From a virus, in IMG/VR virus record IMGVR_UViG_3300047089_000307, positions 1 through 64,000 of that record: a stretch of DNA of 64,000 nucleotides. One strand, written 5' to 3'. The notes under the pieces were generated by a model, which was not told where the DNA came from, did no database searches, and saw only the letters and a program-made list of their open reading frames with translations. Shown here piece by piece: positions 5,527 to 43,161 of the stretch (position 1 is the stretch's first letter; each line of letters begins with the position of its first letter). Made by a program: the position numbers and the translations under genes.

Positions 5527-5530
5527 CTTT

Positions 5531-5605
5531 GCAGACGTGGCGCAACGGTAGCGTATTACCTTGCCAAGGTAATGGTTGCGGGTTCGAGTCCCGTCGTCTG
5601 CTCCA
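5531..5605 (+). tRNA. tRNA-Gly(GCC)
   Basis: loop TTGCCAA, encoded CCA. Confidence 0.9.
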
Positions 5606-5606
5606 C

Positions 5607-5691
5607 GCGCGGGTGGTTGGAATTGGCAGACACGCACGGCTCAGACCCGTGTGGCCGCAAGGTCGTGAGGGTTCGAGTCCCTCTTCGCGCA
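5607..5691 (+). tRNA. tRNA-Leu(CAG)
   Basis: loop CTCAGAC, long variable arm. Confidence 0.9.
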
Positions 5692-5747
5692 CTAGGTGAC
5701 CCGGTAAACGTGGCGCTGCCGCGGCAACCGCAATCCGGGCACTCCCT

Positions 5748-5833
5748 GGAAGGCTCGCATAGCTGGCTTATTGCGCTGCCCTGCTAAGGCAGTTCGGATA
5801 ATACCGACGCGGGTTCGAATCCCGCGCCTTCCT
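5748..5833 (+). tRNA. tRNA-Ser(GCT)
   Basis: loop CTGCTAA, long variable arm. Confidence 0.9.
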
Positions 5834-5891
5834 CTGGATTCGCGTGAGGTACCGAAATGGCGCAAGCCTGTGAAGCGTGAGTCCTTCAAAT

Positions 5892-5975
5892 GGAAGATGA
5901 ACCTGGCAGGAGTCAGGGACCGGCCGGAAACCGGTTCGGCGCGCGAGCGCTGGGATTCGAGTTCTCCGTCTTCCG
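5892..5975 (+). tRNA. tRNA-Ser(GGA), C33
   Basis: ACCGG-CCGGAAA-CCGGT, long variable arm. Confidence 0.8.
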
Positions 5976-6113
5976 CGGAGGTAGGCCGGGAAACCCTGAC
6001 AGCGGGGAGGTTGCCTGCCTGCTGCCTTGAACTCCTGGGGAGCGCGACGTACGGCTAACCCCGAATCCCGCCAGGGCACAGGACAAGGGCAACATTTCCT
6101 GTGCCCGATCCCC

Positions 6114-6195
6114 GGAAGGTACGCAGCCGGCGCTGCAACTCGCCTCGAAAGCGAGGGCGGGGTAACACCTGGGGGCTCGACACCTCTACCTTCCT
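6114..6195 (+). tRNA. tRNA-Ser(CGA)
   Basis: CTCGC-CTCGAAA-GCGAG. Confidence 0.8.
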
Positions 6196-6200
6196 CTTAC

Positions 6201-6273
6201 GGGCTCCTCGTCTAATCGGTGAGGACGCGTGTCTGATAAGCACGTAATCGGGGTTCAATTCCCTGGGGGCCTA
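6201..6273 (+). tRNA. tRNA-Ile(GAT)
   Basis: loop CTGATAA. Confidence 0.9.
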
Positions 6274-6274
6274 C

Positions 6275-6346
6275 TGGAGCGTCGTTCAATGGTAAGGACG
6301 CGCCTCTTATACGGACGTGACTCGGGTTCGATTCCCGGCGCTCCTA
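6275..6346 (+). tRNA. tRNA-Ile(TAT)
   Basis: loop CTTATAC; U1-U72 mismatch. Confidence 0.75.
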
Positions 6347-6347
6347 C

Positions 6348-6420
6348 TGGGATATAGCTTAGACGGAAGAGCGGCGGATTCATAACCCGTCAGGCCCGGG
6401 TTCGATCCCCGGTATCCCGA
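6348..6420 (+). tRNA. tRNA-Met/Ile2(CAT)
   Basis: loop TTCATAA. Confidence 0.85.
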
Positions 6421-6424
6421 CTAT

Positions 6425-6495
6425 GCCTCTTTAGCATAAGGCAGTGCAGCGGGCCTTTACCCCGCGTTGTCAGGGTTCAAGTCCCTGGGGAGGTA
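6425..6495 (+). tRNA. tRNA-Lys(TTT), C33
   Basis: GCGGG-CCTTTAC-CCCGC. Confidence 0.8.
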
Positions 6496-6496
6496 C

Positions 6497-6570
6497 TGCG
6501 CGCAGGTGTACCGGATGGTCACGCCGGCCTTCTAAGCCGAGAGGACGGGGTTCGACTCCCCGGCGCGCGA
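6497..6570 (+). tRNA. tRNA-Arg(TCT)
   Basis: loop CTTCTAA. Confidence 0.85.
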
Positions 6571-6575
6571 CTCAT

Positions 6576-6648
6576 GCTCGTGTGGACAAGCGGTGAAGTC
6601 ACCTGCCTCTCAAGCAGGAGATCCCGGGTTCAAATCCCGGTACGAGCA
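6576..6648 (+). tRNA. tRNA-Glu(CTC)
   Basis: CCTGC-CTCTCAA-GCAGG. Confidence 0.9.
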
Positions 6649-6652
6649 CGTT

Positions 6653-6745
6653 TCCAGGGAAGCGCACAGTCCGGACTGTGCTAGCGGTTCTGGCCGATCA
6701 GGAACGTATGCCGGGCGGTTCGATTCCGTCGCCGCGTTCCCTGGA
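6653..6745 (+). ncRNA. tRNA-like RNA with long closing stem and T arm but no canonical anticodon arm
   Basis: TCCAGGGAA/TTCCCTGGA closure, two hairpins, GGCGG-TTCGATT-CCGTC. Confidence 0.55.
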
Positions 6746-6752
6746 TTCATGA

Positions 6753-6823
6753 CGTCCTGTCGATCATGGGTAGGTCCCGGTCCTTTCAAGGCCGAGAACA
6801 GGGTTCGAGTCCCTGTAGGACGA
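6753..6823 (+). tRNA. tRNA-Glu(TTC)
   Basis: loop CTTTCAA. Confidence 0.85.
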
Positions 6824-6824
6824 C

Positions 6825-6902
6825 CGCGGAGTAGGGGAGCTCGGTGTCCCCGCTGGGCTCATAACCCAGAGATCGCGGGTTCAAATCCCGCCTCCGCTAC
6901 CA
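6825..6902 (+). tRNA. initiator tRNA-fMet(CAT)
   Basis: C1 mismatch, GGG/CCC anticodon stem, encoded CCA. Confidence 0.9.
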
Positions 6903-6903
6903 A

Positions 6904-6974
6904 TCTCCTATCGTTTAATGGGAGGACGAGCGGCCGTTAACCGCTTAATTCTGGTTCGAGTCCAGGTGGGAGAG
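6904..6974 (+). tRNA. tRNA-Asn(GTT), C33
   Basis: AGCGG-CCGTTAA-CCGCT. Confidence 0.85.
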
Positions 6975-7047
6975 CGGAAGCAGGAAGGGAGTACGCCTTC
7001 GCCAGGGAAGGTCTGGCACGAGAGAAGAGCCGTCCTGCTTCACCAAT

Positions 7048-7122
7048 GGGGCTATAACTCAGCCTGGTTAGAGTGCCACCTTGTCACGGTGGAAGCCGCC
7101 GGTTCAAATCCGGTTAGTCCCG
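7048..7122 (+). tRNA. tRNA-Asp(GTC)
   Basis: loop TTGTCAC. Confidence 0.9.
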
Positions 7123-7123
7123 C

Positions 7124-7198
7124 GCAGCCATGGTGAAATGGATATCATGACAGGCTACGAACCTGTCGGTCTGGGTTCGACTCCCGGTGGCTGTACCA
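7124..7198 (+). tRNA. tRNA-Arg(ACG)
   Basis: loop CTACGAA, encoded CCA. Confidence 0.9.
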
Positions 7199-7244
7199 GC
7201 GCTAACTCCGGATGGCGCTATAGAAAACGTTCCGGGGCGAGCAA

Positions 7245-7316
7245 GCCCACTTAGCTCAGAGGCAGAGCGGCTGTCCTACAAACAGCGGGCCGGGATTTCG
7301 AAATTCTCAGTGGGTA
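7245..7316 (+). tRNA. tRNA-Val(TAC), C33
   Basis: GCTGT-CCTACAA-ACAGC. Confidence 0.85.
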
Positions 7317-7336
7317 CTGCGCCGGAAGGCGCTCAT

Positions 7337-7421
7337 GGCGGCGGAAGCAGGATGGCATTATGCGTCAGGTTGTGACCCTGTGTCCGCAAGGATTCGCGGG
7401 TTCAAATCCCGTTCGTCGCCC
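7337..7421 (+). tRNA. tRNA-His(GTG) with extra variable-arm hairpin
   Basis: loop TTGTGAC, G-1, TCC-GCAA-GGA variable arm. Confidence 0.8.
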
Positions 7422-7540
7422 GTAAGCCGGGGTTGAGGGCATCCTCGTGACGGCAAGCCGGACTCAGGCAGGCTCCCGGCCCCGCAAATCGCGTTCAGCC
7501 GTGACCTGCCGGGTTCAATGGCCGCGGAAACCCTCTTTAC

Positions 7541-7622
7541 TGACGAGTATGCAAGTGGTTCAAAGCATCCGGCCTGTAAATCCGGCGCCTCGGCTTCGTG
7601 GGTTCGAATCCCTCCTCGTCAA
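7541..7622 (+). tRNA. tRNA-Tyr(GTA)
   Basis: loop CTGTAAA, long variable arm. Confidence 0.9.
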
Positions 7623-8022: not shown

Positions 8023-8538
8023 ATGGAAGGCTGGGAGCCTGCGAGGCTAGGCGGATTCCGGCGTTCGACCGCGGGTAGCTCAGAATGGAAGAGCGCTGCG
8101 CAGATTACGCAGAGGCCGGTGTCTCGAAAGCATCACCGCGGACTATGGCGAGCAGCCTGGGCTGAGAAGCTCGGGTTGCCCGGTTGTCCCTATGTCGTGA
8201 GGTGGCGGCTGGAGACCCCGGCAGGCTCTGTCCGGGTGCACCATTGGCTGAGGCCGGATGATGACCGGGCCTTCCATGATCATCCCTGGTGGTTCCTCAC
8301 CCTGGTCCTGCGCGGCGGCTACGCCGACCGGACCCCTGCGGGGGAGGACTACCTGTCCGCGGGGTCCGTGCGGTTCCGGCACGCCCGCTACCAGCACACC
8401 GTGATTCCGGGCCCGCAGGGTGCGTGGACGTTCCTGGTCACCGGCCGGCCAGCCCGCGCCTGGGGCTTCTGGAGGGACGGGAAGTTCCGCAAGGCCAATA
8501 AGTGGTTCGCCGCGTTCGGGCACCACCCGTGCTCTTGA
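8023..8538 (+). CDS. cupin-like phage protein (start uncertain)
   Basis: RVHHW...DDRAFHDHPWWFLTLVLRGGY metal-binding cupin motif. Confidence 0.7.
   Translation: MEGWEPARLGGFRRSTAGSSEWKSAAQITQRPVSRKHHRGLWRAAWAEKLGLPGCPYVVRWRLETPAGSVRVHHWLRPDDDRAFHDHPWWFLTLVLRGGYADRTPAGEDYLSAGSVRFRHARYQHTVIPGPQGAWTFLVTGRPARAWGFWRDGKFRKANKWFAAFGHHPCS
8069..8142 (+). tRNA. atypical tRNA-like gene, anticodon GAT (A33), nested in ORF 8023..8538
   Basis: CCGCGG acceptor, GCTC/GAGC D arm, CTGCG-CAGATTA-CGCAG. Confidence 0.55.
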
Positions 8539-8687
8539 AGTATGGTACAGTATCTACGAGCGTAGCCTCAGCTTCCTGATCGCTCCCGGCCGTGTTGCCG
8601 GGAATCAGCCTCGTCGTCGTCATATCGCTCCAGCTTCAGCCTCCTTGATCCGTGTGTCCTCAGGCCGCGGGCCTGCGTACCGGAAGT

Positions 8688-8762
8688 GCGGGTTCAATTC
8701 CCGCCGGCTCCTCCCGTGGAGCCGTAGCTCAATTGGCAGAGCGTCGTTACTCAAGAAAACGG
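8688..8762 (+). ncRNA. circularly permuted tRNA-like module (possible CAA anticodon arm)
   Basis: T arm 8688-8704; CGGCTCC/GGAGCCG hairpin; D arm 8727-8742. Confidence 0.75.
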
Positions 8763-27662: not shown

Positions 27663-27802
27663 TTCCTTCTCCCGTTGTCCCTGAGTTCCCACGGTGGCAC
27701 TTCAGGCTAATACTAAGCTCATGCCGCGAGCGAGTGCCGGCCTTCGCGGATCACCGGCTACGTCTGTTCTAGTATAATAAGGAAGTCTGCTAGAGTCGTC
27801 GC

Positions 27803-28780
27803 ATGAGAATCCTCGTGACCGGTGGGGCCGGGTTCCTCGGGAGCAGCCTCGTCCGCCGCCTGGCCGGGGAAGGTCATGAGGTACGGGTCCTTGACGACCT
27901 GAGCCGCGGTGACCGGGAGCGGCTCCGCGGCGTGCCGTGCACGCTCATTGAAGGCGACGTGCGAAACTCGGCAGACGTCCTGACCGCGATGCACGGCTGC
28001 GACATGGTGGCGCACCTGGCTTACCTCCAGGGCACCCAGACGTTCTACGCCGAGCCGCGCGCTGTCCTCGACGTTGCGCTGCGCGGCATCCTCAACGTGC
28101 TGCGCGGCTGCGAGGTCACCGGCTGCGGGGACCTGCTCCTGGTGTCCTCCTCCGAGGCGTACCAGGTGGCCCCGCAGGTGCCCACCCCGGAGGACATCCC
28201 CCTCGTCGTCCCGGACGTGCTCAATGCCCGGTACAGCTACGGCGGCGGCAAGATCGCCTGCGAGCTGGCCGTGCTGGCCTGGGAGCGGGCAGGGGTACTG
28301 GACCGGGTGGTGATCGCCAGGCCGCACAACGTCTACGGTCCTGACATGGGCCGGGAGCACGTTATCCCGGAGTTCTGCAACCGGATGGACGAGCTGATCC
28401 CGCAGTACCCGAAGGGGGGCGTCATCCCGTTCCCCATCCAGGGCACCGGCCAGGAGACCCGGTCGTTCTGCTACATCGATGACTGCACGGCCCAGCTGAG
28501 CCTGCTCGCCGGCCAGGGCACCCCCGGCGGCGTCTACCACGTGGGCACCATGGACGAGCGCACGGTCGCGGACGTTGCCGTTGCCGTGGGCCGGCGCTAT
28601 GGCCGTGAGGTCAAGGTCATGCCGGGCAAGCTGGCCAAGGGGTCGCCGCCGCGCAGGCTGCCGGACACGGCGAAGATCCGGGCGCTGGGAACCTGGCCGG
28701 AGACCTCGTTCGAGGACGGCCTGGCCGAGACGGCAGCCTGGTACCAGGCGCACAGCCTCCTGCCGCGGCAGGCTTGGTGA
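27803..28780 (+). CDS. NAD-dependent epimerase/dehydratase
   Basis: ILVTGGAGFLGS, YGGGK and NVYGP motifs. Confidence 0.95.
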   Translation: MRILVTGGAGFLGSSLVRRLAGEGHEVRVLDDLSRGDRERLRGVPCTLIEGDVRNSADVLTAMHGCDMVAHLAYLQGTQTFYAEPRAVLDVALRGILNVLRGCEVTGCGDLLLVSSSEAYQVAPQVPTPEDIPLVVPDVLNARYSYGGGKIACELAVLAWERAGVLDRVVIARPHNVYGPDMGREHVIPEFCNRMDELIPQYPKGGVIPFPIQGTGQETRSFCYIDDCTAQLSLLAGQGTPGGVYHVGTMDERTVADVAVAVGRRYGREVKVMPGKLAKGSPPRRLPDTAKIRALGTWPETSFEDGLAETAAWYQAHSLLPRQAW

Positions 28781-29907
28781 CCGGTGACGTCACCGCCTGC
28801 GGCGGCTGCGGGGCGCACGGGCTGCTGAGGCCCTTCTTCGACATGGGGCGCCAGCCGCTTGCCGAGAGCTCCAGGGCAAGTGCCCGGTACCCGCTCGCCC
28901 TCGTGCAGTGCGCGAGCTGCCTGCTCGTCCAGCTCAGCTACATCGCGGACCAGCGGGAGGTCTTCCCGGAGGATCACCCGTACACGACGGGCAACTCCCG
29001 GGTGCTGCGCGAGCACTATGCGAACCTGACCCGGGACCTTGCCGGAAACCTCGCCCTGGGCGACCTGGTCGTTGATATCGGGGCCAATGACGGGACGCTG
29101 CTGGGCAGTTACCCGGGACCACCGCGCCGGGTAGCGATAGAGCCGACGAACCAGGTCAGGAAGTGCGGTCCTGGCATCACGCAGTACCAGGAGTTCTTCA
29201 CCGCTGGCCTGGCGGCGAAGATCCGCGGGGAGCACGGGCCGGCCAGGGTCGTCACGGCGTGCAACGTCCTCGCGCACGTGCCGGATGTCCATGACTTCCT
29301 GGACGGCGTGGTGACCTTGCTGGCTGACGACGGGGAGTTCGTCACCGAGAACCACGACCTGGCGAGCATCACCGAGGGCCTTCAGATCGACACGATCTAC
29401 CATGAGCACCTGCGGTACTACTCGGTGGCCACCCTCGCCGGCCTGCTGGAGCGGCACGGCCTGCGGGTCACCAGCTCGCAGGAGACCCCGATGCACGGCG
29501 GGTCGTTCCGCGTGCGGGCCCGCAAGCAGCGGGGCGGCCTCCAGCACCGGGCCGAGGGCGCCGCTGCGGCGCTGCGCGGGATGCTATGGAAGATCACCGT
29601 CCAGGAGAAGGAGAAGGTGTACGGCATCGGCGCGACCACCCGCGCCACGCCGCTCCTCCACTACGCGGGCGTTCAGAAGTACGTCACGTGCGTCTGCGAG
29701 GTACCCGGCAGCGAGAAGATCGGCCAGCTGATGCCAGGCACGCAGATTCCCGTGGTGGACGAGAAGCGGCTCATCGAGGACCAGCCCGCGTACGCGCTGA
29801 TGCTGTCCTGGCACATCGCCGGCGACATCATGCCGAAGCTGCGCGCGGCCGGCTACCAGGGCAAGTTCATCGTCCCGCTTCCCAGCCCAGGGATCGCCGG
29901 TGCCTAG
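28777..29907 (+). CDS. NDP-sugar C-methyltransferase
   Basis: Zn finger plus DIGANDG, NVLAHV, DTIYHEHL and HGGS motifs. Confidence 0.9.
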   Translation: MTGDVTACGGCGAHGLLRPFFDMGRQPLAESSRASARYPLALVQCASCLLVQLSYIADQREVFPEDHPYTTGNSRVLREHYANLTRDLAGNLALGDLVVDIGANDGTLLGSYPGPPRRVAIEPTNQVRKCGPGITQYQEFFTAGLAAKIRGEHGPARVVTACNVLAHVPDVHDFLDGVVTLLADDGEFVTENHDLASITEGLQIDTIYHEHLRYYSVATLAGLLERHGLRVTSSQETPMHGGSFRVRARKQRGGLQHRAEGAAAALRGMLWKITVQEKEKVYGIGATTRATPLLHYAGVQKYVTCVCEVPGSEKIGQLMPGTQIPVVDEKRLIEDQPAYALMLSWHIAGDIMPKLRAAGYQGKFIVPLPSPGIAGA

Positions 29908-30262
29908 CAGCTTCCGGGACGACCGGGGCTACATCGAGGACCTTGTCGTCTCCCCGATTGACTCCGTGACGCGCATCATCACCAGGGCGGGCGCTGTCCG
30001 CGGGAACCACGTGCACCGGGAGACCGTGCAGTGGACGTACGTGGTCTCCGGGAGGCTCCTCATTGCTATCCGGCTCCAGGACGGGAGCATCCGCGAGCGT
30101 GAGCTTGGCCCGGGGGAGATGGCCCGGGAAGAGGCCGGGGCTCCTCACGCGTGGAAGGCCATCGCCGACTGTACCTGCCTTGTCTTCACCCGTGGCCCGC
30201 GATCAGGGGCCGGGTATGAGAGTGACACGACCAGGCTAGCCGAGGAGGACTGGCTGCTATGA
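29900..30262 (+). CDS. cupin, probable NDP-sugar isomerase/epimerase
   Basis: DDRG and RGNHVH motifs. Confidence 0.8.
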   Translation: MPSSFRDDRGYIEDLVVSPIDSVTRIITRAGAVRGNHVHRETVQWTYVVSGRLLIAIRLQDGSIRERELGPGEMAREEAGAPHAWKAIADCTCLVFTRGPRSGAGYESDTTRLAEEDWLL

Positions 30263-30921
30263 GGGACCTGCTCGTCGTGGTGCCCAGCCGGGGCCGCCCG
30301 CAGAATATCCAGCGGCTGCGAGAGGCCATGGACGTTACCTGCCAGGGGTACACGACGCTCCTCGTTGGCCTGGACGAGGACGACGAGGAAAGCTACCCCC
30401 GGCTGGGGAACGTGCAGTATGCAGTCCGGGCCGGCCTGCGCGGCTTTACCGCCTGGGCGAATGAGCTGGCCGTGCCCGCCGTGGGGGAGTACCGGTACAT
30501 CGGGGCGCTCGGTGATGACTGCGTGCCGGAGACGCCCGGCTGGGACGTGCGGATCATGGAGGCCCTGAACCGCCAGCCCTTCGCGTACGCCAACGACCTG
30601 TACCCGCTGCGCCCGCACGGCTCTCAGGTAACGCACGTCTTCACCAGGAGTGAAGTCGTCCGGGCGCTCGGCTATATCGGCGTCCCGGCTCTTACTCACA
30701 TGTACGTGGACGACGCCTGGGGGGCCTGGGGCGCGGCCTGCGGGATCGAGTACCTCCCCGGCGTGATCATTGAGCACTTGCACCACTCCTCCGGGAAAGC
30801 GCCGGCTGACGAGACGTACCGGCGGGCGGAGGAGACCTCGGCGCAGTGCCAGGCAGCCTTCGCCGAGTACTGCCGCGGAGAGCTGGACGAGGATGTCCGC
30901 AAGATCAAGGCGGTGCTGTGA
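30259..30921 (+). CDS. glycosyltransferase, GT-A/GT2-like
   Basis: VPSRGRP, GDD and HLH motifs. Confidence 0.8.
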   Translation: MRDLLVVVPSRGRPQNIQRLREAMDVTCQGYTTLLVGLDEDDEESYPRLGNVQYAVRAGLRGFTAWANELAVPAVGEYRYIGALGDDCVPETPGWDVRIMEALNRQPFAYANDLYPLRPHGSQVTHVFTRSEVVRALGYIGVPALTHMYVDDAWGAWGAACGIEYLPGVIIEHLHHSSGKAPADETYRRAEETSAQCQAAFAEYCRGELDEDVRKIKAVL

Positions 30922-30928
30922 CGTGAGG

Positions 30929-31390
30929 ATGCACGGCAAGTGCGGGTGGCTGTACCTGGAGAATGCCGATCCAGTGCTCCTGCGGGAGTGGATGTATGAC
31001 GCCAGCAGCTCCACCCTGGAGACCGTCCCTCCGGTGAACGTCGCCAGTGCCGTGCCTTTCCGGCTTTACCCGGCCGCGGCCATTTCCGAGATTCCCCCGC
31101 CTGCGGGCGACCAGCATTTCTGGGGCGTTATCAGGCCGGGGGGCCGGGTGCCGGGCATCCAACGCCATCCAGGAGGGTCAGAGCCCCGGGAGCTAGTTGG
31201 CAGGCTCGTCCGCCAGGTCTGGGTGCAGTGGGCGCGAGAGCAGCCGGACCCGAAGCCGTCCTGGCTACTGCCCTGGGAGGACTTGGACGACGGCCAGCGT
31301 GAGGCGGACATGCGCATCGGAGCGGCCTTGTTCGATGCGGGCTACCGGGCAGGGACGAACGGGGATGACGCGCTGGGAACGGCGCCATGA
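30929..31390 (+). CDS. hypothetical protein
   Basis: C-terminal PSWLLPWEDL...READMRIG motif. Confidence 0.55.
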   Translation: MHGKCGWLYLENADPVLLREWMYDASSSTLETVPPVNVASAVPFRLYPAAAISEIPPPAGDQHFWGVIRPGGRVPGIQRHPGGSEPRELVGRLVRQVWVQWAREQPDPKPSWLLPWEDLDDGQREADMRIGAALFDAGYRAGTNGDDALGTAP

Positions 31391-32025
31391 CGGGCGTGAC
31401 CTGGGACGTCCTGATCTGCTCGATCCCGCACCGGCACGTGACGCTGCTGGAGCTGCTCGCTGACCTTAACCGGCAATGGCAGCCGGGATTCGGCGCGCTG
31501 ATCTACCGGGACAACCTGGAGGACAGCTACGGGGCTAAGACGCAGACCCTGCTGAACAGGTCCCGGACACAGTACGTCTCCTGCATCGATGACGACGACC
31601 TGCTGGCCCCCGATGGCGTGGCGCGGATCATGGCGGCACTCCAGGCGCAGCCGGATTACGTGGGCTTCATGGTGCGCTGGACGACGGACGGCGTTCCGGA
31701 AGTCCCGGTTGAGCACTCGCTCGCGCACTCGAACTGGACTAACCGGCCGGACATCCTGCTCCGGGACATCACCCAGTTCAACCCGATCCGCCGGGAGCTG
31801 GCGCTGCTGGGCACCTGGGAGGGCGGGAATGAGGCTGAGCGCCGCTGGAGCAGCGGGGTGCGGGCCAGCGGCAAGTGCGTGAGCCAGGCATGGCTACCGG
31901 ACCCCCCGGTGTACTACTACCGGTCATCAAGCAAGGACACCTTCAAGATGGAGCGCTTCCCGATGCCGCAGGACCAGATTCCGCTGCTGCCGTCGTATCC
32001 CTGGCTGACGGTGGTCGGATCATGA
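31387..32025 (+). CDS. glycosyltransferase, GT2-like
   Basis: YVSCIDDDD motif. Confidence 0.8.
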   Translation: MTGVTWDVLICSIPHRHVTLLELLADLNRQWQPGFGALIYRDNLEDSYGAKTQTLLNRSRTQYVSCIDDDDLLAPDGVARIMAALQAQPDYVGFMVRWTTDGVPEVPVEHSLAHSNWTNRPDILLRDITQFNPIRRELALLGTWEGGNEAERRWSSGVRASGKCVSQAWLPDPPVYYYRSSSKDTFKMERFPMPQDQIPLLPSYPWLTVVGS

Positions 32026-32747
32026 GGGACCTGCTGGTCGCCGTGCCCAGCCGGGGACGCCCTGCGAGCATCGCCCGGCTTGCGCAGGCGATGAAGGACA
32101 CCTGCACGGCGGACACCGTGCTGGCGGTCGGCCTGGACGACGACGACGAGGGCCAGTACCCGCGGCTGCCCGGCGTGGAGTACGAGGTGCGCTCCGGGCT
32201 GCGCCGGGTCACCGCGTGGACCAATGAGCTGGCCGTCCCCCGGGCCGGGCAGTACCGGGCGGTCGGCTCCCTCGGCGATGACAACGTGCCGCGCACGCCC
32301 GGCTGGGACACGGCCATCCTCAAGGCCCTGGAGAGCACGCCGTTCGCATTCGGCAACGACCTGTACCCGCGGGACCCCGGGTCGATGAGCTGCCACATCT
32401 TCATGCGCAGTGAGGTGGTGCAGGCCCTCGGCTACGCGGGGGCGCCGACGATCTCGCACATGTACGTGGACGTGGGCTGGTTCGCCTGGGGCACTGCCTG
32501 CGGGATCACGTACCTGGACGACGTGGTCATCGAGCACATGCACTACTCCGTGGGCAAGTCCGGCCCGGATGAGGTCTACGCCGCCTCCTACGCGCTGACG
32601 AGCACGGACCTCCAGAACTGGCATGCCTACAGCCGCGGCGGCCAGCTGAACGCCGACATCGCGAAGCTGGGCGGGACGCCGTTCACCCCCGAGTCGCTGT
32701 CCGAGTTCAACCGGAGCATCAACGTGCCGGACCAGTGGCCGGGATGA
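32022..32747 (+). CDS. glycosyltransferase, paralog of 30259..30921
   Basis: MRDLLVAVPSRGRP, near-identical architecture. Confidence 0.8.
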   Translation: MRDLLVAVPSRGRPASIARLAQAMKDTCTADTVLAVGLDDDDEGQYPRLPGVEYEVRSGLRRVTAWTNELAVPRAGQYRAVGSLGDDNVPRTPGWDTAILKALESTPFAFGNDLYPRDPGSMSCHIFMRSEVVQALGYAGAPTISHMYVDVGWFAWGTACGITYLDDVVIEHMHYSVGKSGPDEVYAASYALTSTDLQNWHAYSRGGQLNADIAKLGGTPFTPESLSEFNRSINVPDQWPG

Positions 32748-33373
32748 CCCAGCCCCTGGTATCGGTGGTTACCCCCACGTGGCAGCGGCACGCGATGCTC
32801 ATGGACCGCTGCGTCCCGGCCGTGCAGGCGCAGGACTATGACAGCGTTGAGCACGTCATCGTCAGCGACGGCCCGGACAGCACGCTGGCCATCGTGCTCG
32901 GCATGCTGTGCGGCAAGAACGCCTGGGGCAACGTCGTCTACCGGGAACTGCCGGAGCATCCCGCCGGCGAGCACTGGGGCCATCATGCCCGGCTGGCCGG
33001 CCTGGAGGTGGCCCGCGGGCAGTACGTCACCTACTGCGATGACGATGACGCCCTCCGGCCCCGGCACTGCGCGCTGATGGCCGCGGCCCTGGACGCGGCC
33101 CCGGAGGCGGGCTTTGCCGTGAGCCGCATGACGTGCCACGGCGGCCCGCACGAGTCGGTGACCGGCTGGGGACCGCTGGCCTGCGGCAACGTGGGAACCC
33201 CGATGATCATGCACCGCCGGGAGATCCTGGCGCACGGGACCTGGGGGCCGGCGTCCTTCACCGAGGACTGGGACCTCGTGGAGCGCTGGCTGGACGCGGG
33301 AGTCAGCTACGTGAGCGTGGACGCGGAGACCAGCGATGCCTGGCCCTCCCTGTACAGGCAGGGGCAGCAATGA
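32744..33373 (+). CDS. glycosyltransferase, GT2
   Basis: VSVVTPT, VSDG, YCDDDD and EDW motifs. Confidence 0.88.
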   Translation: MTQPLVSVVTPTWQRHAMLMDRCVPAVQAQDYDSVEHVIVSDGPDSTLAIVLGMLCGKNAWGNVVYRELPEHPAGEHWGHHARLAGLEVARGQYVTYCDDDDALRPRHCALMAAALDAAPEAGFAVSRMTCHGGPHESVTGWGPLACGNVGTPMIMHRREILAHGTWGPASFTEDWDLVERWLDAGVSYVSVDAETSDAWPSLYRQGQQ

Positions 33374-33699
33374 CGGACGGCCATGACCGGGAACGTCATG
33401 CTCCTGCGCCGCAGCAGCGGGTGAGGGACCTGGAGCGCCAGTACGACGTTGCCCGGGAGCACGAGGAGAGGTACCGCAACGCCCTGCTGTGGGTGCGCAC
33501 GGTTGCCGGCATGCACTACCTCGGCGGGGCCTTCGAGCCCGAGCACATGCGCGACCTGGCCAACCTCGCCGCTAACGCGCTGGACGGCACGGACCTGCCA
33601 GACTGCGAGGAAAGCTCGGCCAAGGCCCGGAAGAAGGCCAGCAAGTGGGCGGAGCGGTTCGGGCGGGAGCTGGCTGAACAGGAGCTGGCGGAAGACTGA
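33370..33699 (+). CDS. hypothetical protein
   Basis: ATGA coupling. Confidence 0.6.
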   Translation: MTDGHDRERHAPAPQQRVRDLERQYDVAREHEERYRNALLWVRTVAGMHYLGGAFEPEHMRDLANLAANALDGTDLPDCEESSAKARKKASKWAERFGRELAEQELAED

Positions 33700-33700
33700 C

Positions 33701-34342
33701 ATGGGCATCATGAGCAAGAACGGCCTGGACGTGCGCAGTTACTACCATTGCTTCGCGGCCGGGGCCTGGGCCGACCCGGTACGGGATCACTTCGCCGCGA
33801 TGGGCCGCAGCGGCCTGGACGAGACGGCGATCACGGTTGGCCTCGTTGGACCGCCGCGGGACCGGGACAATGCCCGGCAGCGGATCGGCCTGCTGTGCCG
33901 CAACTGGTGCATTCCCGAGCCGGCGCAGTGGCGCGAGGCAGAGGAAGGATGGGAGCAGGTAACGCTCCAGGCCATCTACGACGACGTCCAGAAGATCCCC
34001 GGTGAGTACGCGGTCCTTTACGCGCACGCCAAGGGCGCCTACGGCGACACGGACACGAACCACGCCTGGCGCCGGTCGATGACCCGTCACGTCGTGCGCG
34101 GCTGGGAGGACTGCGTGACGCTCCTCGGCAGCCATGACATGGTCGGATGCCACTACGTCTCCAACGACCATTACCCGCAGGACCCGCCGTTCTTCGGAGG
34201 GAACTTCTGGTGGGCCCGGGCATCGTACCTGCGCCGGCTGCCCCCGCCGGAGAACGAGAACCGCTGGACCGCGGAGATCTGGGCGACGCAGGCGAACCCC
34301 CTGGTCCATGACTTGCGGCCAGGATGGCCTGACTACCAGTGA
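33701..34342 (+). CDS. glycosyltransferase-like protein
   Basis: LYAHAKG...WR..M...GNFWWA motif. Confidence 0.65.
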   Translation: MGIMSKNGLDVRSYYHCFAAGAWADPVRDHFAAMGRSGLDETAITVGLVGPPRDRDNARQRIGLLCRNWCIPEPAQWREAEEGWEQVTLQAIYDDVQKIPGEYAVLYAHAKGAYGDTDTNHAWRRSMTRHVVRGWEDCVTLLGSHDMVGCHYVSNDHYPQDPPFFGGNFWWARASYLRRLPPPENENRWTAEIWATQANPLVHDLRPGWPDYQ

Positions 34343-34343
34343 G

Positions 34344-35069
34344 GTGATCCCCGTCAAAGCTTTCATCATCTTCCGTGACCGGGTGACGTACGGTCGCCAG
34401 TGCCTTGCGGCGTTCCAGGCCGCGGGCCTTGAAACGACGATCGTTGACCACGGCAGTACCTGGCCGGGGGCAGTGGACTGGCTCAGGGAGCTGAAGAAGT
34501 CGGGCGTCCCGGTGGTTGACGAAGGCGGCGGCAACCCGCGGGACCTATGGCAGCGGGACTGGTTCCGCAGGGCGTGCGCCCGGGAGAAGTACGTCGTGAA
34601 TGACCCGGACGTCATACCGTCGCAGGAATGCCCGCCCGACTGGCCGCAGTACCTGTCGGAAGTCCTCGACAGGCACCCGAACTACCACAAGATCGGCCTC
34701 GGGCTGCGCATCGACCGCATCCCGGAGCACTACACGCAGCGCGATAACGTCATCGGCTGGGAAGCGCACTTCTGGGATCACGAGGTAGAGCACGGCGTGT
34801 ATCACGCGGACGTCGACACTACGCTGGCCGTGCACATCCCGATGATGGACATGGGCTGCCATTCCTTCAGCGCGATGCGCACGGGCTTCCCGTACGTTGC
34901 CGACCACGTGGCCTGGTACGAGGACTACCGGAACCTGAGCGAGGAGCTGGCGTACTACCACAGCCACGCGGAGGAGGGGATCTCCTGCTGGACGCCGCGG
35001 AAGGAAGCTCCGTGGGATGCCGGGGGAGCGATCCTGCCGGGGCGCGGCATGGCTACCGGGACTGACTGA
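34344..35069 (+). CDS. glycosyltransferase, GT2-like
   Basis: IVDHGSTW, DPDV and ADVDTT motifs. Confidence 0.75.
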   Translation: MIPVKAFIIFRDRVTYGRQCLAAFQAAGLETTIVDHGSTWPGAVDWLRELKKSGVPVVDEGGGNPRDLWQRDWFRRACAREKYVVNDPDVIPSQECPPDWPQYLSEVLDRHPNYHKIGLGLRIDRIPEHYTQRDNVIGWEAHFWDHEVEHGVYHADVDTTLAVHIPMMDMGCHSFSAMRTGFPYVADHVAWYEDYRNLSEELAYYHSHAEEGISCWTPRKEAPWDAGGAILPGRGMATGTD

Positions 35070-35206
35070 GCTGCTGTCTCATGGAGTATCCTCACCGGCA
35101 TGAGTGACTGGGCTGGCAAGCCGAGCATGCGAAGCAAGGCCCGGCTGGTCATGGCCGCGGATGGCGCGAGCATCGAGGCGGCGATGGCCGCGCCCGGGGC
35201 GGGAAA

Positions 35207-35419
35207 GTGAAGTCCCGCGTCACGCTGGAGCCGTCTGAGCTCAGTGAGGACGGACGGGTCATCGAAGCCTGGATCAGCGTCGAGCGCCTCGGTGACTGCG
35301 ACGATGACGCTACGGACCGGGACCTGTTCCTGTCCCCGGAGGAGATGCAGTTCCTGTACCAGGGGATGAGGCGCTACTACGAGGACGGCGTGTGGACGAC
35401 CGGGACGGTGGAGTGGTGA
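35207..35419 (+). CDS. hypothetical protein
   Basis: codon bias. Confidence 0.55.
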   Translation: MKSRVTLEPSELSEDGRVIEAWISVERLGDCDDDATDRDLFLSPEEMQFLYQGMRRYYEDGVWTTGTVEW

Positions 35420-35877
35420 GCGCCAAGTGGGACGAGCGGTACCTGAACCTGGCCACGCTGGTGTCGTACTGGAGCAAGGACCGCAGTACGAAGGTCGGCT
35501 GCGTGATCGTGGGCGAGGCCGGCCAGGTGCTCTCCACCGGGTACAACGGCTTCCCGCGCGGCATTGGCGACGATGTAGCGCAACGGCACGCTCGCCCGGC
35601 CAAGTACCTGTGGACCGAGCACGCTGAGCGGAATGCCGTCTATAACGCGGCCCGGACGGGCACGTCCCTGCTCGGGTCGTCGCTGTACCTGCCGTGGTTC
35701 CCCTGCGCGGACTGCGCCAGGGCCATCATCCAGTCGGGGATAGCCGTCCTCGTGGTTGTCGAGGTCAAGCGCGGCGACGCCCAGTGGGATGAGAGCATCG
35801 CGGTCAGCAAGGAGATGCTCGCGGAGGCCGGAGTCATTGTCCGCTGGCACGAGCCGGGGGTGAGCGCGAGCGCGTGA
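35416..35877 (+). CDS. dCMP deaminase
   Basis: GYNG, HAERNA and PCADCA motifs. Confidence 0.92.
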   Translation: MSAKWDERYLNLATLVSYWSKDRSTKVGCVIVGEAGQVLSTGYNGFPRGIGDDVAQRHARPAKYLWTEHAERNAVYNAARTGTSLLGSSLYLPWFPCADCARAIIQSGIAVLVVVEVKRGDAQWDESIAVSKEMLAEAGVIVRWHEPGVSASA

Positions 35878-36041
35878 GCGAGATCTTCTTCCTGCTCGTG
35901 TGCCGGGAGTGCGGTAACCCGGGAAAGCCCTTGATCATGCCCTTCGGCTCGGCGGCCGACCGGGGGAAGTGGGCCTCGGAGCACACGAGGGCCACCGGGC
36001 ATGACCGCTGGTGGGTGCAGGACGAGGTGCGGGAATCATGA
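35874..36041 (+). CDS. small hypothetical protein
   Basis: GTGA coupling; CREC and H..TGH motifs. Confidence 0.5.
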   Translation: MSEIFFLLVCRECGNPGKPLIMPFGSAADRGKWASEHTRATGHDRWWVQDEVRES

Positions 36042-36430
36042 GCGGCTGCCAGCGGGAGGAGAGGCCAGTGCATGAGGTCAAGGTCACCGGCAACATCATG
36101 GCGGACGGCGTCGATATCTGGGTGACGATGAAGTTCGAGGGATCGCCGCGTCGTATCCTGCACTTCCGGGAGGGCCTTCCGGACTGGGACGAGGCGGACG
36201 GGACCGCGCAGCCCCCGACGATGACGCTGCCTGATGACGCGGGCCGGGCGCTGCTGGAGCAGCTGCTACGGCATTACGCCGGGTCGCAGGACCTGCACAC
36301 GGTCCGCGCTGACCTGGTGCACGAGCGCAAGCGCGTTGACAATCTCATCAGCGCGCTCACGCAGGCGCTGGCCGTGACCATTCAGCAGCGTATTACAGTG
36401 TCTTCTCGTGAGGATCTTCGCAGGCCATGA
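36038..36430 (+). CDS. hypothetical protein
   Basis: ATGA coupling. Confidence 0.6.
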   Translation: MSGCQREERPVHEVKVTGNIMADGVDIWVTMKFEGSPRRILHFREGLPDWDEADGTAQPPTMTLPDDAGRALLEQLLRHYAGSQDLHTVRADLVHERKRVDNLISALTQALAVTIQQRITVSSREDLRRP

Positions 36431-37481
36431 TGGTGGGTCAGGCTGCATGTACTACCGGATCAAGGTCCCCCTGGAGGAGCTGGCCCGGCACGGTCATGAG
36501 GTGACCTTCCGCTCCGGCGGGAATGAGGAGGGTAACCGGCCCATCACCCTGGCGGAGATGGCCGAGCATGACGTGGTGATCGGGCAGCGGTTCAATCACT
36601 ACGCGGGCATGGGCACCTGGCGCCGCGCCCGCGGGCCGTCCAGCCGGCTGGTCTACGAGATTGATGACGACGTCTTCTCCGTGACCCCGGTCAACTGGCA
36701 GGCGTACCACGTCTACAGCCAGCCGGAGGTCCGCGAGGCTGTCATGCACCAGGCCCAGGTATCGGACCTGGTGACCGTGACCACGGAGCACCTGGCCGCG
36801 GTGATGCGCGAGCACACCGGCAACGGCAACGTCCTGGCGCTGCCGAACTGCGTCCCCGGCTGGGTGCTGGACATGGAGCGCAGGCCCCGGCAGCGCCCGG
36901 CGATCGGCTGGGCGGGCGGCGCCAGCCACGGCAGCGACGTCGGGCTGCTCGTCAGCCCCGTGCGCCGGTTCCTGAAGCGGTTCCCCGGCTGGGACTTCCA
37001 GCTTGGCGGCACGGACTTCCGGGAGACCTTCGCCCGGGAGGGGTCGCCGCGCGGGAGGCTGCTGCACGCCCGGTGGGTGCCGGTCTGCGAGGACGCGCGG
37101 GGCTATTACGAGACCGCGGACTTCGACATCGGCCTGGCCCCGCTGGCGGGAACCCCGTTTGACCTGTCGAAGTCCTGCGTCAAGGTACTGGAGTACGCGG
37201 CCCGGGGCATTCCCTCGATCGCCAGTGACTGCGAGGTTTACCGGTCGTTCATCCGCCATGGCGAGAACGGCTTCCTGGTGAAGAGGGACCATGAGTGGCT
37301 GAAGTACGCATCCGAGCTGGCCAGCGACGGGGGCCTGCGGCTGGCGATGGGCCAGGCAGCGCGGGACACGGCGCGGGAGTGGACGATCGAGGCGAATTAC
37401 CACCTATGGGAGCAGGCGTACCGGAGCCTGTTTAAGGTCAAGTCTCTTAGCGTATTATGGCCTTCGTGCGCGAGCCAGTAG
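36408..37481 (+). CDS. glycosyltransferase, GT-B/GT4-like
   Basis: YYRI, EIDDD, DIGLAPL..F..KS.VK.LEY and HGENG motifs. Confidence 0.88.
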   Translation: MRIFAGHDGGSGCMYYRIKVPLEELARHGHEVTFRSGGNEEGNRPITLAEMAEHDVVIGQRFNHYAGMGTWRRARGPSSRLVYEIDDDVFSVTPVNWQAYHVYSQPEVREAVMHQAQVSDLVTVTTEHLAAVMREHTGNGNVLALPNCVPGWVLDMERRPRQRPAIGWAGGASHGSDVGLLVSPVRRFLKRFPGWDFQLGGTDFRETFAREGSPRGRLLHARWVPVCEDARGYYETADFDIGLAPLAGTPFDLSKSCVKVLEYAARGIPSIASDCEVYRSFIRHGENGFLVKRDHEWLKYASELASDGGLRLAMGQAARDTAREWTIEANYHLWEQAYRSLFKVKSLSVLWPSCASQ

Positions 37482-39241
37482 CCAGGCAGTACCGTTACCG
37501 GGCCTATCCCGATGAGGAGCAGGCTGACCTCCTGGACTTCTACGCAGCGGGCGCCCGCGCGTTCTGGAATAAGAACGTCGCGTGGCTGCGCGCCATGGAG
37601 GGAAGTGAGGGGCATGACGACCTTGGCGCTGGCCGCCAGCTGAGCGAGGCTTACGCTTACCTCGCCAGCGTGCCCGGCATCGCTGAGGCCCTGAAGAGCA
37701 GGAAGCATCCGGAGCATGAGCGCTGGACGGCCTTCCTGCGAAAGGCAGAAAGGCCGCGCCAGCCCGGCTGGCATGCGTGGACGCGGCATTACGGGGGTGC
37801 CAGGCTCCGCGGGCAGCTGAGCGGGAACTTCTCTGCCGCCGTGCACGCTGCGCGGGAGAGCGGGATGACGTTCTGGCACGGGGGCGAGCAGCACCCGGTC
37901 TCGGCGGTCCCGTCGAAGGTCCTGCACGGGGCGTGCGGGAGCAAGGGCCAGCTCAAGGCCGCCGTGGACGCTGTCATGAAGAAGCGCGCCGCTGGCAAGC
38001 GCGCAGAGCTGCCCCGCTGGCGTGCCCGGCATGAGAGCCAGAACCTGCGCTGGCAAGTCCAGGATGGTCCCCGGAACGCGACCCGGGAGTCCCTGGTGAC
38101 GGTAACGGGCACGCGGCACGCCACCGTGCCGCTGGTAACGACGCGCGGGCACGAGGGTAATAAGAGCCTGCGCATCCGCTATCATCGCGAGCTCCCCGCG
38201 GACGCCTCAGTGTCCTTCATGCAGGTGACCTGGAATCCGGGGACCGGCTGCTACTTCGTGACGCTCACGCTGACGACCGCGCAGTACGAGGTTCCGGCCA
38301 CGACGGGCATGGCCGGCATCGACCGGGGCATCGTAAAGGCTGCTGTCACTTCGGACGGGGAGTACTACGATTCTCCGGGACTGAACCAGGGGCGCCGTCG
38401 CCGCGAGCTCCTGCTCCAGCAGTCCCTTGACTGGAAGCGCCGCGTGCTGCCGTGCAAGGGCCGGTGCGCGCACGAGCCAGGGCAGTGCTGGCGCACGTCA
38501 CTACGGTATGCACGGGTCGTGACGGCCCGGCAGCGGCTCCTGGACGCCCAGGAGGACCTCATCGATGACGGGGCGCACAAATTCTCCCGGGCTATCGCCC
38601 GCCGGTACGCGGTCGTCGTGCTTGAGGACCTGGCGAACCTGATGACGGCGTCCACGGCGAAGGGCACGGTAGCCGCCCCCGGCGTGAGCGTGCGCGCCGC
38701 CGCCGGACGCAACCGGGAGGTACGCGCGGCTAACTGGGGGCGCATTGAGCAGTACCTGGGGTATAAGGCAGGGCAGCTCCTCGGCGTCCCGGCGCCGTAT
38801 ACGTCGCGGACATGCCCGCGATGCGGGTATGTTAGCGTCATGAACCGGCCCTCCCAGGCGGAGTTCCGGTGCGGGTCCTGCGGACTCAGCGGCAACGCTG
38901 ACGTGATCGCGGCCGGCAATATCGTTAATGCAGGGAAAACCGCCCGCGCGCTGCGGGATAACGGGCAGGGATCGTCCTCCGGGATTAACCGGGGGCCTGG
39001 CGCTAGCCGGGAGCCTGCCAACACTCACAACTTTACAGTGGCCCCGGGCGAGCGCTGCGGTAGTGCGCCCGATCCCGGTCAGCGCTCGCAGGCAGGTGAG
39101 CAGCCAGGAATCGTTACCGAGCTCGACGGAACGGTGATCCCGGAGACGTGGGGCATCCCCGGTGCTCGCATCCGCGGGGGAAACCGCAGGTCACGACGGG
39201 CGAAAAAGCCGAGCGGTGGCAACACTGCCGGAGCCGGGTGA
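37457..39241 (+). CDS. cas12: TnpB-derived CRISPR-associated Cas12-like nuclease (compact type V effector); start may be GTG 37466
   Basis: YRYRAYP HTH, RuvC-I GIDRG, RuvC-II VLEDL, CPRC/CGSC Zn ribbon, RuvC-III ADVIAAGNI; abuts CRISPR array. Confidence 0.9.
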   Translation: MAFVREPVARQYRYRAYPDEEQADLLDFYAAGARAFWNKNVAWLRAMEGSEGHDDLGAGRQLSEAYAYLASVPGIAEALKSRKHPEHERWTAFLRKAERPRQPGWHAWTRHYGGARLRGQLSGNFSAAVHAARESGMTFWHGGEQHPVSAVPSKVLHGACGSKGQLKAAVDAVMKKRAAGKRAELPRWRARHESQNLRWQVQDGPRNATRESLVTVTGTRHATVPLVTTRGHEGNKSLRIRYHRELPADASVSFMQVTWNPGTGCYFVTLTLTTAQYEVPATTGMAGIDRGIVKAAVTSDGEYYDSPGLNQGRRRRELLLQQSLDWKRRVLPCKGRCAHEPGQCWRTSLRYARVVTARQRLLDAQEDLIDDGAHKFSRAIARRYAVVVLEDLANLMTASTAKGTVAAPGVSVRAAAGRNREVRAANWGRIEQYLGYKAGQLLGVPAPYTSRTCPRCGYVSVMNRPSQAEFRCGSCGLSGNADVIAAGNIVNAGKTARALRDNGQGSSSGINRGPGASREPANTHNFTVAPGERCGSAPDPGQRSQAGEQPGIVTELDGTVIPETWGIPGARIRGGNRRSRRAKKPSGGNTAGAG

Positions 39242-40039
39242 GTGAGGCGACACGCTCTTGCCGTGCAGCTGGTCAATCTGGCCCTGGTGGCAACACTGCC
39301 GGAGCCGGGTGAGTGAGGCGACTGGGCACCGGGCGAGGCGTTCTGCCCGGCGTTGCCGGTGGCAACACTGCCGGAGCCGGGTGAGTGAGGCGACTGGGCA
39401 CCGGGCGAGGCGTTCTGCCCGGCGTTGCCGGTGGCAACACTGCCGGAGCCGGGTGAGTGAGGCGACAGGTGGTGGGACGGGCTGCCCGGGTTGGTCAGCA
39501 TGGTGGCAACACTGCCGGAGCCGGGTGAGTGAGGCGACCAGCCCGCGCCGTCGCTCCGGAGAACCTTGTATTCGGTGGCAACACTGCCGGAGCCGGGTGA
39601 GTGAGGCGACAAGCAGCAGACGCCGCCGGTGAGCGTGTCCTCGGGCCGTGGCAACACTGCCGGAGCCGGGTGAGTGAGGCGACTCGGTGCGCCTGCGGCT
39701 ACGGGTGGCCGGCTTGATCGGTGGCAACACTGCCGGAGCCGGGTGAGTGAGGCGACGGCTTCCAGGCGTCGGCGAGCCGGACCACCTCGCGCGTGGCAAC
39801 ACTGCCGGAGCCGGGTGAGTGAGGCGACCGCGACTGCTGCAATGCGCTAGACAAGGCAGGTGGCAACACTGCCGGAGCCGGGTGAGTGAGGCGACAGTGC
39901 AGCGCTGATGTCAGCCTGCGCCCGCGACTTGGTGGCAACACTGCCGGAGCCGGGTGAGTGAGGCGACATCAGGACCGGCCTTACCGGTCGACGCCTCCCG
40001 GCGGTGGCAACACTGCCGGAGCCGGGTGAGTGAGGCGAC
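39216..40039 (+). CRISPR. CRISPR array: 12 identical 36-nt repeats, 11 spacers (31-37 nt)
   Basis: GTGGCAACACTGCCGGAGCCGGGTGAGTGAGGCGAC at 39216, 39287, 39359, 39431, 39503, 39575, 39648, 39721, 39793, 39860, 39932, 40004. Confidence 0.98.
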
Positions 40040-40040
40040 T

Positions 40041-40065
40041 GCTGCGGTATCCTGGCCACCGCAGC
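40041..40065 (+). terminator. hairpin directly after last repeat
   Basis: GCTGCGGT/ACCGCAGC 8-bp stem, no T tract. Confidence 0.45.
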
Positions 40066-40080
40066 CGGGAGGAGCACGTG

Positions 40081-42073: not shown

Positions 42074-42589
42074 ATGGCCTGGACCGCATCCGCCATCTTC
42101 CAGCAGGCGATGCTCAACCCCATCGCCGGGCGCAGCTGGACTACTGCCGCGCCGACGACGTACTCCTCGCTGTCGGCCGACACGATCAACGTCTCCCTGT
42201 TCGGCACGCTGACCCCGGACAAGACTGCCGCCGTGGGCAGCACCGGGTACAACACGGGCGTCTGGGTCACCGGCTCCGAGATCACTGACGCGACCAACTG
42301 GGTGGCGGGCGGCCGGGCGCTGGGCTCCAAGGCGTTCGCGATCGACACCGGGTCGTCCTCGATCTGCTTCACCGCGGCGAACCTGGCCGGCGGCGGCACG
42401 GTCACGCTGACGGCATTCTTCGGCTGCTTCGTCTACGATTTCACGATCACGGCAGGCACGGTCGCCAAGCAGGGCCTCTGCTACAACTACTTCGGCGGCT
42501 CCCAGACGGTGACGGGCGGCACGTTCACCATCCTCTGGGCGACCCCGGTCGGCGCGGCCGTCACCGCCGTCTTCAACATCTCGGTGTAG
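42074..42589 (+). CDS. putative virion structural protein
   Basis: Thr/Gly-rich beta protein, FGG..T.GTFTI.W motif. Confidence 0.65.
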   Translation: MAWTASAIFQQAMLNPIAGRSWTTAAPTTYSSLSADTINVSLFGTLTPDKTAAVGSTGYNTGVWVTGSEITDATNWVAGGRALGSKAFAIDTGSSSICFTAANLAGGGTVTLTAFFGCFVYDFTITAGTVAKQGLCYNYFGGSQTVTGGTFTILWATPVGAAVTAVFNISV

Positions 42590-43161
42590 CCGGCGTGAGC
42601 ACGGTCCAGGTAGCTGAGCAGGCGGCGGGCACTCGCCACGTCGTCCTTCAGCAACCCGACCGCCCGGTTGCAGTTCACGCACAGCAGGCCGCGTACGCAC
42701 TTCCCGCAGGAGTCGGCACCTGGACAGCAAGCGTGATCGTGGTCGACGGCGAGCTTGTCTCTCCGGGGGCCGGGATTAAGGCAGATTGCGCATACCCCGT
42801 CCTGGGAGGCGAGCATTGCGTCGTAGGCGTCACGGGTCAGGCGATAGTGCGCCATGAGCCACCAGCTACGCTGCCGCGCCTGGCCGTCCGGCGTCTGGTT
42901 GTACTCCTGGCTGTAGCAGCGCACGCACTGGCCTGTCTTGTACGAGGCGCGTTTTCCGCATGCGCACCTGACCCACTCGTACTCAGGCCGTGGACTGCTG
43001 CGCGGGCGCATTTCTATCTCCGAGCGCAGCAGCGAATTACGGATAACTGCCCGGTTCACTCCCAGTTGCTCTGCGAGCTGCTTGAGCGTGAGCCGGTCAT
43101 CAACGTAAAGCTTGGCGATATCCGCGTCTTGCTCCGTAGAGAACTTTCGTTTGCGTCCCAT
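42487..43161 (-). CDS. endonuclease VII-type HNH nuclease with N-terminal HTH
   Basis: QDGVCAIC..LAVDHDH..VRGLLC..CN motif. Confidence 0.9.
   Translation of the reverse strand: MGRKRKFSTEQDADIAKLYVDDRLTLKQLAEQLGVNRAVIRNSLLRSEIEMRPRSSPRPEYEWVRCACGKRASYKTGQCVRCYSQEYNQTPDGQARQRSWWLMAHYRLTRDAYDAMLASQDGVCAICLNPGPRRDKLAVDHDHACCPGADSCGKCVRGLLCVNCNRAVGLLKDDVASARRLLSYLDRAHAGYTEMLKTAVTAAPTGVAQRMVNVPPVTVWEPPK

Follow-up and report, generated by a model that had tools for sequence, protein, structure and literature searches.

Does a TnpB-like nuclease gene that runs into a CRISPR (short palindromic repeats, clustered and regularly interspaced) array on a virus genome encode a working type V system, and does this system belong to a subtype that has already been described? 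The question was raised by an earlier note, drawn from the letters alone, on a stretch of 64,000 nucleotides (nt), hereafter the window, which spans positions 1 to 64,000 of the IMG/VR virus record IMGVR_UViG_3300047089_000307. The source assembly is a single linear virus record of 158,651 bp, with 68.8% GC and an estimated completeness of ~75%. As it carries terminase, portal, and major capsid genes (besides a head-tail adaptor gene) together with the nuclease, we consider the system phage-encoded, as the note had proposed. Our preferred reading, to which we give a probability of about 0.75, is that of a phage-borne miniature type V system that depends on a tracrRNA (trans-activating CRISPR RNA), derives from an IS605-type TnpB independently of Cas12n, and would act against competing phages. 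The system is real and probably active. Judging from its predicted parts, it would work like Cas12n or TranC, and it is not Cas12n.

The nuclease, its array, and the predicted guide RNA

The open reading frame (ORF) of 594 aa has the three RuvC motifs described previously (GIDRG at 287, LEDL at 389, and ADVIA at 481). It is a single RuvC effector with a D-E-D triad, as in TnpB-derived type V nucleases, and its triad (D289, E390, and D482) and TNB zinc finger are intact, as they are throughout the clade of relatives described below. The protein has the Pfam domains HTH_OrfB, OrfB, and TNB; the NCBIfam model guided_TnpB scored barely above its cut-off, and no Cas12 model exceeded its own. The AlphaFold2 model, with a mean pLDDT (the predicted score of the local distance difference test) of 71, is folded to around residue 500 and mostly below 50 in the remainder, in line with the folded core of ~490 aa anticipated in the note. 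Its closest structural match is the TnpB of ISDra2 (8h1j, E 3e-16). The tail lacks the phage codon pattern, with a GC content at third codon positions of 0.71, vs 0.84 in the core. The enlarged N-terminal region that had been pointed out exists in this protein (around residues 46-120), but its relatives lack this extra length and it is not a clade trait.

Searching all 1.8 billion representatives, we retrieved around 15 relatives, 30-42% identical to the protein, which form one clade with a Cys-rich insert as its hallmark. The relatives on long contigs are phages. No full-length relative was found among GenBank phages or GTDB genome hits, and a single-protein locus search of IMG/VR gave no match. 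The insert, conserved in its Cys and Trp residues, replaces the short KGS turn of TnpB and holds two to five Cys in 15/15 clade rows, vs zero or one in 35 other TnpB/Cas12n rows. Hence, the insert that was suspected of binding zinc is real and clade-specific, and it is probably a second zinc site.

The gene leads directly into twelve identical repeats, and its stop codon does lie inside the first of them (39239-39241, nt 24-26 of repeat 1). The earlier description of a nuclease fused to its array thus holds for the overlap of gene and array in the DNA, and not beyond that level. The spacers are 31-37 nt long (spacer 9 has 31 nt), numbers 2 and 3 share one sequence, and no further copy of the repeat was found elsewhere in the 158,651-bp contig, allowing up to 12 mismatches. 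Most of the relatives end in an array of this kind. Full arrays of 36-nt repeats at the gene end occur in L004 (at least 20 repeats), L005 (at least 12), and L269 (six). The P0004 ORF continues through two repeats, and the gene of L002 ends within a 36-nt repeat that is followed by a spacer. Four contigs (L003, L271, L272, and L334) stop ~30 nt into repeat-like sequence after the same junction motif, as expected since repeats break short-read contigs. The downstream array is therefore conserved over more than one protein cluster, as in type V systems, and the gene-array junction is kept across the clade at differing phage positions. Within the clade the middle of the repeat varies, and complete repeats end in GCGAC. 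The repeats of L004 and L005 become more degenerate with distance from the gene, so that spacers are probably added at the gene end. Some spacers of the L004 array (8160-8735) have as few as 10 and 15 nt, and several others measure 30 nt, a pattern that suggests deletions.

The tail of the gene is predicted to encode an omegaRNA-like tracrRNA (38939-39028), an element absent from the earlier note. Over ten loci, 94% of the pair cells of its scaffold are paired, with two-sided changes in 8/13 pairs. None of 500 shuffles scored as high, and slid controls gave 32-48%, a lenient comparison because the scaffold structure was derived from the same sequences. The anti-repeat varies with each locus's own repeat, and the pairing begins at repeat position 28-30. 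Own-repeat pairing ranked best among 720 permutations of the six in-ORF loci anchored on AAC (1/720), and also among those of eight loci (1/40320), where two anchors came from a duplex scan and are non-independent. The loop of stem 1 can pair with repeat nt 31-34 at 4/4 positions in five of six loci, with a CGCC/GGCG vs CGCA/TGCG change, and a similar pseudoknot occurs in TnpB and Cas12n guides (PMC12216341). This RNA has moved within the clade: the ORF of L005 lacks the scaffold, which is located on the downstream side of the array with a hairpin and a T-run after it, and the scaffold of L269 is upstream of the gene and has a long anti-repeat after the same motif (24/25 nt, by inspection). 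A plain TnpB gene of Streptomyces also carries the stem end CCCGTGAAC in its 3' end, which points to an omegaRNA origin of the tracrRNA. The covariation of the gene-tail anti-repeat with the repeat supports a functional tie between the array and the nuclease locus, and the system probably needs its tracrRNA. As a separate observation, a decayed array in L085 (~6430-6830) retains no more of the repeat than its final 10 nt, twice separated by 37-nt spacers; these 10 nt are the part predicted to form the pseudoknot.

The last part of the ORF ahead of the array is a probable CRISPR leader. We read it as such because CAGGTC also precedes Cas12n and host arrays. Its GCTCGCA...CAGGTSA units are still present in L005 and L269, whose tracrRNA lies elsewhere, and are therefore not tracrRNA. 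The motif GCTCGCA...CAGGTCA was considered as the anti-repeat and dropped, as it is constant while the repeats change and stays when the tracrRNA moves.

These observations bear on the possibility that the host's class 1 CRISPR machinery uses the phage array and that the neighboring TnpB is a bystander, left over from a transposon. There are precedents for phage mini-arrays relying on effectors of the host (PMC11656645), the repeat ends resemble those of an orphan actinobacterial array, and both the spacer length and the TTC flank of the one perfect protospacer (see below) are compatible with type I-C. Yet the repeats diverge strongly among loci and the anti-repeat follows them, while the junction with the gene is conserved in different phage contexts. 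Moreover, no host or plasmid array was seen to contain the window repeat: comparison of the array with plasmids and 401 actinobacterial genomes gave chance-level matches only. The exact repeat had no match in IMG/VR. We consider it very unlikely that the nuclease is such a bystander, and retain the tracrRNA-dependent type V system. The features of the locus are listed in Table 1.

Table 1. Features of the nuclease locus, in window coordinates.
Feature	Position	Strand	Description
TnpB-derived type V effector gene	37457..39241	+	594 aa; folded core ~1-500, low-confidence tail
RuvC-I catalytic Asp289	38321..38323	+	Invariant in clade
Clade-specific Cys-rich insert (C333, C337, H339, C344, W345)	38453..38491	+	Tip of RuvC helical hairpin; CKGRC at 333
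RuvC-II catalytic Glu390	38624..38626	+	Clade alignment
TNB CxxC/CxxC zinc finger	38813..38881	+	PF07282, E 5.5e-14
RuvC-III catalytic Asp482	38900..38902	+	Motif and clade alignment
Predicted tracrRNA scaffold inside ORF	38939..39022	+	Stem 1, stem 2, AAC linker; starts directly after RuvC-III codon
Stem 1	38943-38957	+	Possible pseudoknot between loop 38949-38952 and repeat nt 31-34
Stem 2	38964-38969 with 39014-39019	+	Covariation
Predicted anti-repeat	39022..39028	+	Pairs with repeat nt 23-29; follows conserved AAC
Candidate CRISPR leader inside ORF	39084..39215	+	Two GCTCGCA...CAGGTSA units (39084-39099, 39164-39193); conserved CGAGC adjoining repeat 1
CRISPR array	39216..40039	+	12 identical 36-nt repeats, 0 mismatches; 11 spacers (10 unique)
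Spacer 1	39252..39286	+	30/35 (24 contiguous) to tape-measure-like gene of another phage
Spacer 4	39467..39502	+	36/36 to the gene for the terminase large subunit in phage IMGVR_UViG_3300035086_000030; TTC as 5' flank

Relation to Cas12n, TnpB, and other subtypes

Multiple independent origins of Cas12 from TnpB are established, including 40 unnamed V-U branches (PMC10691335) and the TranC clades, and the earlier note had suggested that this locus may represent another one. One might instead read the effector as a divergent member of Cas12n (V-U4/V-N; Chen 2023, cited in PMC12216341). Its best PADLOC match is Cas12u4 (E 4e-36) and its best PDB sequence match is RdCas12n. According to PMC12216341, Cas12n is also a compact TnpB-like nuclease with a disordered C-terminal tail and a tracrRNA overlapping the ORF, features that we find or predict here, and in the Cas12n loci that we examined the array is directly downstream of the gene, with the CAGGTC motif just ahead. 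However, the PADLOC match is misleading: it scores 123 bits, whereas array-linked Cas12n-like proteins reach 660-680 with the same profile and other TnpB-like matches from actinobacteria 200-430. Identity to the Cas12n-like references is 14-21% in the N-terminal half and 26-33% in the RuvC half. The protein lacks the HHDVK and PAPEK motifs, and the sole perfect protospacer is flanked by TTC and not by the A-rich protospacer adjacent motif (PAM) of Cas12n. Repeats and spacers measure 36 and ~36 nt, vs ~28-29 and 32 nt in Cas12n, whose reference loci have a 61-nt period. Finally, the window lineage has the Cys-rich RuvC insert, unlike Cas12n, and is found on phages, whereas Cas12n is found on plasmids and chromosomes.

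The phylogenetic and profile check proposed in the note was run against TnpB and Cas12n. We built unrooted trees of 294 rows (FastTree) and 50 rows (IQ-TREE, LG+G4), leaving out fragments shorter than 330 aa, near-duplicates, and Cas12f, Cas12m, and TranC sequences. The Cas12n references were selected by profile and are mostly array-linked, from Streptosporangiales-type genomes, Micrococcus, Corynebacterium, Mycobacterium, and Streptomyces. They cluster with other TnpB-like proteins from actinobacteria (support 96-100), and our clade stands apart from them, beside ordinary TnpBs (support 90-94). Forcing a joint clade with Cas12n costs 208 log-likelihood units and is rejected by the approximately unbiased (AU) test (p-AU 2e-44). 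Hence, the protein is outside Cas12n by both tree and profile, and its membership in this subtype is extremely unlikely. For the suggested independent transition, this upholds an origin separate from Cas12n; the tree does not extend it to Cas12f, Cas12m, and TranC.

Cas12f, Cas12m, Cas12j, Cas12p, V-U2, and V-U3 were compared by profile and identity, without a tree, and the protein fits none of them. It scores 48 bits with Cas12f2 (cut-off 450) and 35 bits with C2c8 (cut-off 350), its identity to solved structures is 10-17%, and no V-U2 references were found. A place among near-identical members of a described subtype would have spoken against the earlier proposal; among the subtypes compared there are none, as the nearest non-identical relatives are at most 42% identical. 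The lineage may already be catalogued among V-U6 to V-U45 or the TranC clades, whose sequences are outside this comparison.

By computation, the system has the traits of the TranC grade: a predicted split omegaRNA, a TnpB-sized effector, and no adaptation genes found. TranC systems (Jin 2025, via PMC13565253; bioRxiv 10.64898/2026.03.27.714800) have 300-600-aa effectors, an omegaRNA split into tracrRNA and CRISPR RNA (crRNA), 32-38-nt repeats, and no adaptation genes, and CauTranC9 is phage-encoded with an array that targets phages. The same sources describe clades 11 and 20 with a structured C-terminal domain and no tracrRNA, and clade 9 with ~414 aa, unlike the window system; LaTranC is 12-14% identical to the window protein in the fold search. 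Cas12r of Thermus Lalka phages (bioRxiv 10.64898/2026.04.20.719267) is also a phage-encoded TnpB-like nuclease followed by an array, relies on host adaptation, and acts in mobile-element conflict. By its description it differs in having 29-nt degenerate repeats, no need of a tracrRNA, a thermophile origin, and integrative elements as targets. IS605-family TnpB (ISDra2, PDB 8h1j) shares the fold, the three domains, and an RNA scaffold in the 3' end of the gene. The window system differs from it by its single copy, its guides from a multi-spacer array, its longer protein, its Cys-rich insert, and the lack of a detected TnpA.

The absence of adaptation and tnpA genes stated in the note stands for Cas1, Cas4, and Y1 TnpA, none of which was found in the 158,651-bp linear, ~75% complete record; Cas2 had no separate search. 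The same three were not found in two complete related phages (210 and 130 kb). No second TnpB was found in the record, so that neither a TnpA partner nor multiple copies mark the gene as a mobile IS200/IS605 TnpB; no search was aimed at an IS607 serine recombinase.

Targets, activity, and proposed mechanism

The use in inter-phage competition suggested earlier gains support from spacer 4, which perfectly matches the terminase gene of another phage. Weak matches to Streptomyces phage terminase genes were obtained first, and a codon-degenerate scan then gave the protospacer. With spacer 1, this makes two spacers matching foreign mobile DNA, as expected of a type V system. The scans of IMG/VR covered spacers 1-6, and spacers 2/3 and 6 had no match there. 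A candidate target of spacer 5 in a phage virion gene shared a 20-nt core but 23/36 overall, and was not accepted. No credible target was found for the L004 and L005 spacers, and no spacer exceeded 26/37 against the phage's own assembled DNA, which gives no sign of self-targeting. The candidate PAM, taken from one protospacer, would be 5'-TTC. TTC is the type I-C PAM (bioRxiv 10.1101/2022.06.15.496202), which fits borrowed adaptation, with one flank and no consensus.

In the mechanism that we propose, one transcript would span the gene, tracrRNA, leader, and array, and be cut into tracrRNA and crRNAs. The anti-repeat would pair with repeat nt 23-29 and the loop of stem 1 with nt 31-34, rebuilding an omegaRNA-like fold from two pieces. 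The nuclease would then cut double-stranded DNA of co-infecting phages beside a 5' T-rich PAM (TTC, seen once). New spacers would enter at the gene-proximal end via a host Cas1-Cas2(-Cas4), possibly type I-C-like.

Alternatively, the complex might bind DNA and silence rival genes without cutting, like Cas12m, or the system might be decaying. Arrays are decayed in five relatives (L001, L084, L085, L267, and L268), and the P0023 relative has lost its zinc finger through an apparent frameshift. With the triad and TNB finger intact here and clade-wide, and all 12 repeats identical, we find silencing or decay unlikely and favor a cutting nuclease. The decayed arrays nevertheless weigh against an active system, and other points count against our proposal as well. 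The support of the clade is moderate (SH-aLRT, the Shimodaira-Hasegawa-like approximate likelihood ratio test, 90-92), and the window anti-repeat has only 7 bp and is outside the best duplexes in an unanchored scan. The PAM is a single flank, possibly reflecting the acquisition machinery, and a scan for the adaptation machinery of the host gave the leader pattern no more often than in controls and did not identify such machinery.

A bolder version can be put forward tentatively, at somewhat short of even odds: a type V subtype that is undescribed and restricted to phages, has a zinc-binding RuvC insert of its own, and serves as an active weapon against competing actinophages. It would have been caught in the middle of RNA splitting, with the tracrRNA either inside the gene (where it overlaps protein tail and leader) or outside, upstream of the gene or following the array.

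Genomic setting and meaning

The locus lies in the virion-gene region, on the same strand as the flanking genes. The upstream neighbor, a glycosyltransferase gene, overlaps the start of the nuclease ORF by 25 nt, and head-tail genes follow downstream. No sigma70-type promoter was found, and a 7-bp hairpin stands immediately 3' of the last repeat (40040-40075), ahead of the ribosome-binding site of the next gene. The GC content and the spacer and leader similarities suggest an actinobacterial host.

Elsewhere in the window, 30 tRNA genes are clustered at 3648-7622 on the + strand, and the Rfam scan of the window found only tRNAs. A long run of sugar epimerase, methyltransferase-like, and glycosyltransferase-like genes (27758-37481), possibly a cluster for virion glycosylation, separates the capsid and head-tail genes; in the L004 phage, a similar epimerase is encoded downstream of the capsid gene. 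An ORF opposite to the virion genes (42487-43161, - strand), with a helix-turn-helix-like start and an endonuclease VII-like motif, is possibly a homing endonuclease. Other TnpB-like genes beside arrays with 29-37-nt repeats were seen in L024, L037, L067, L074, and L132, outside both this clade and Cas12n.

The concept of a TnpB turned CRISPR effector is not new, with Cas12n, TranC, and Cas12r as precedents; the present locus adds a route from TnpB to CRISPR that is well delimited and apparently specific to phages. Its predictable guide architecture and candidate PAM make it testable as a ~500-aa editor suited to GC-rich hosts. The perfect terminase match is direct sequence evidence for CRISPR targeting of one phage by another. 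Finally, the three tracrRNA positions within one clade provide a natural series for the question of how an omegaRNA becomes a tracrRNA and a crRNA.
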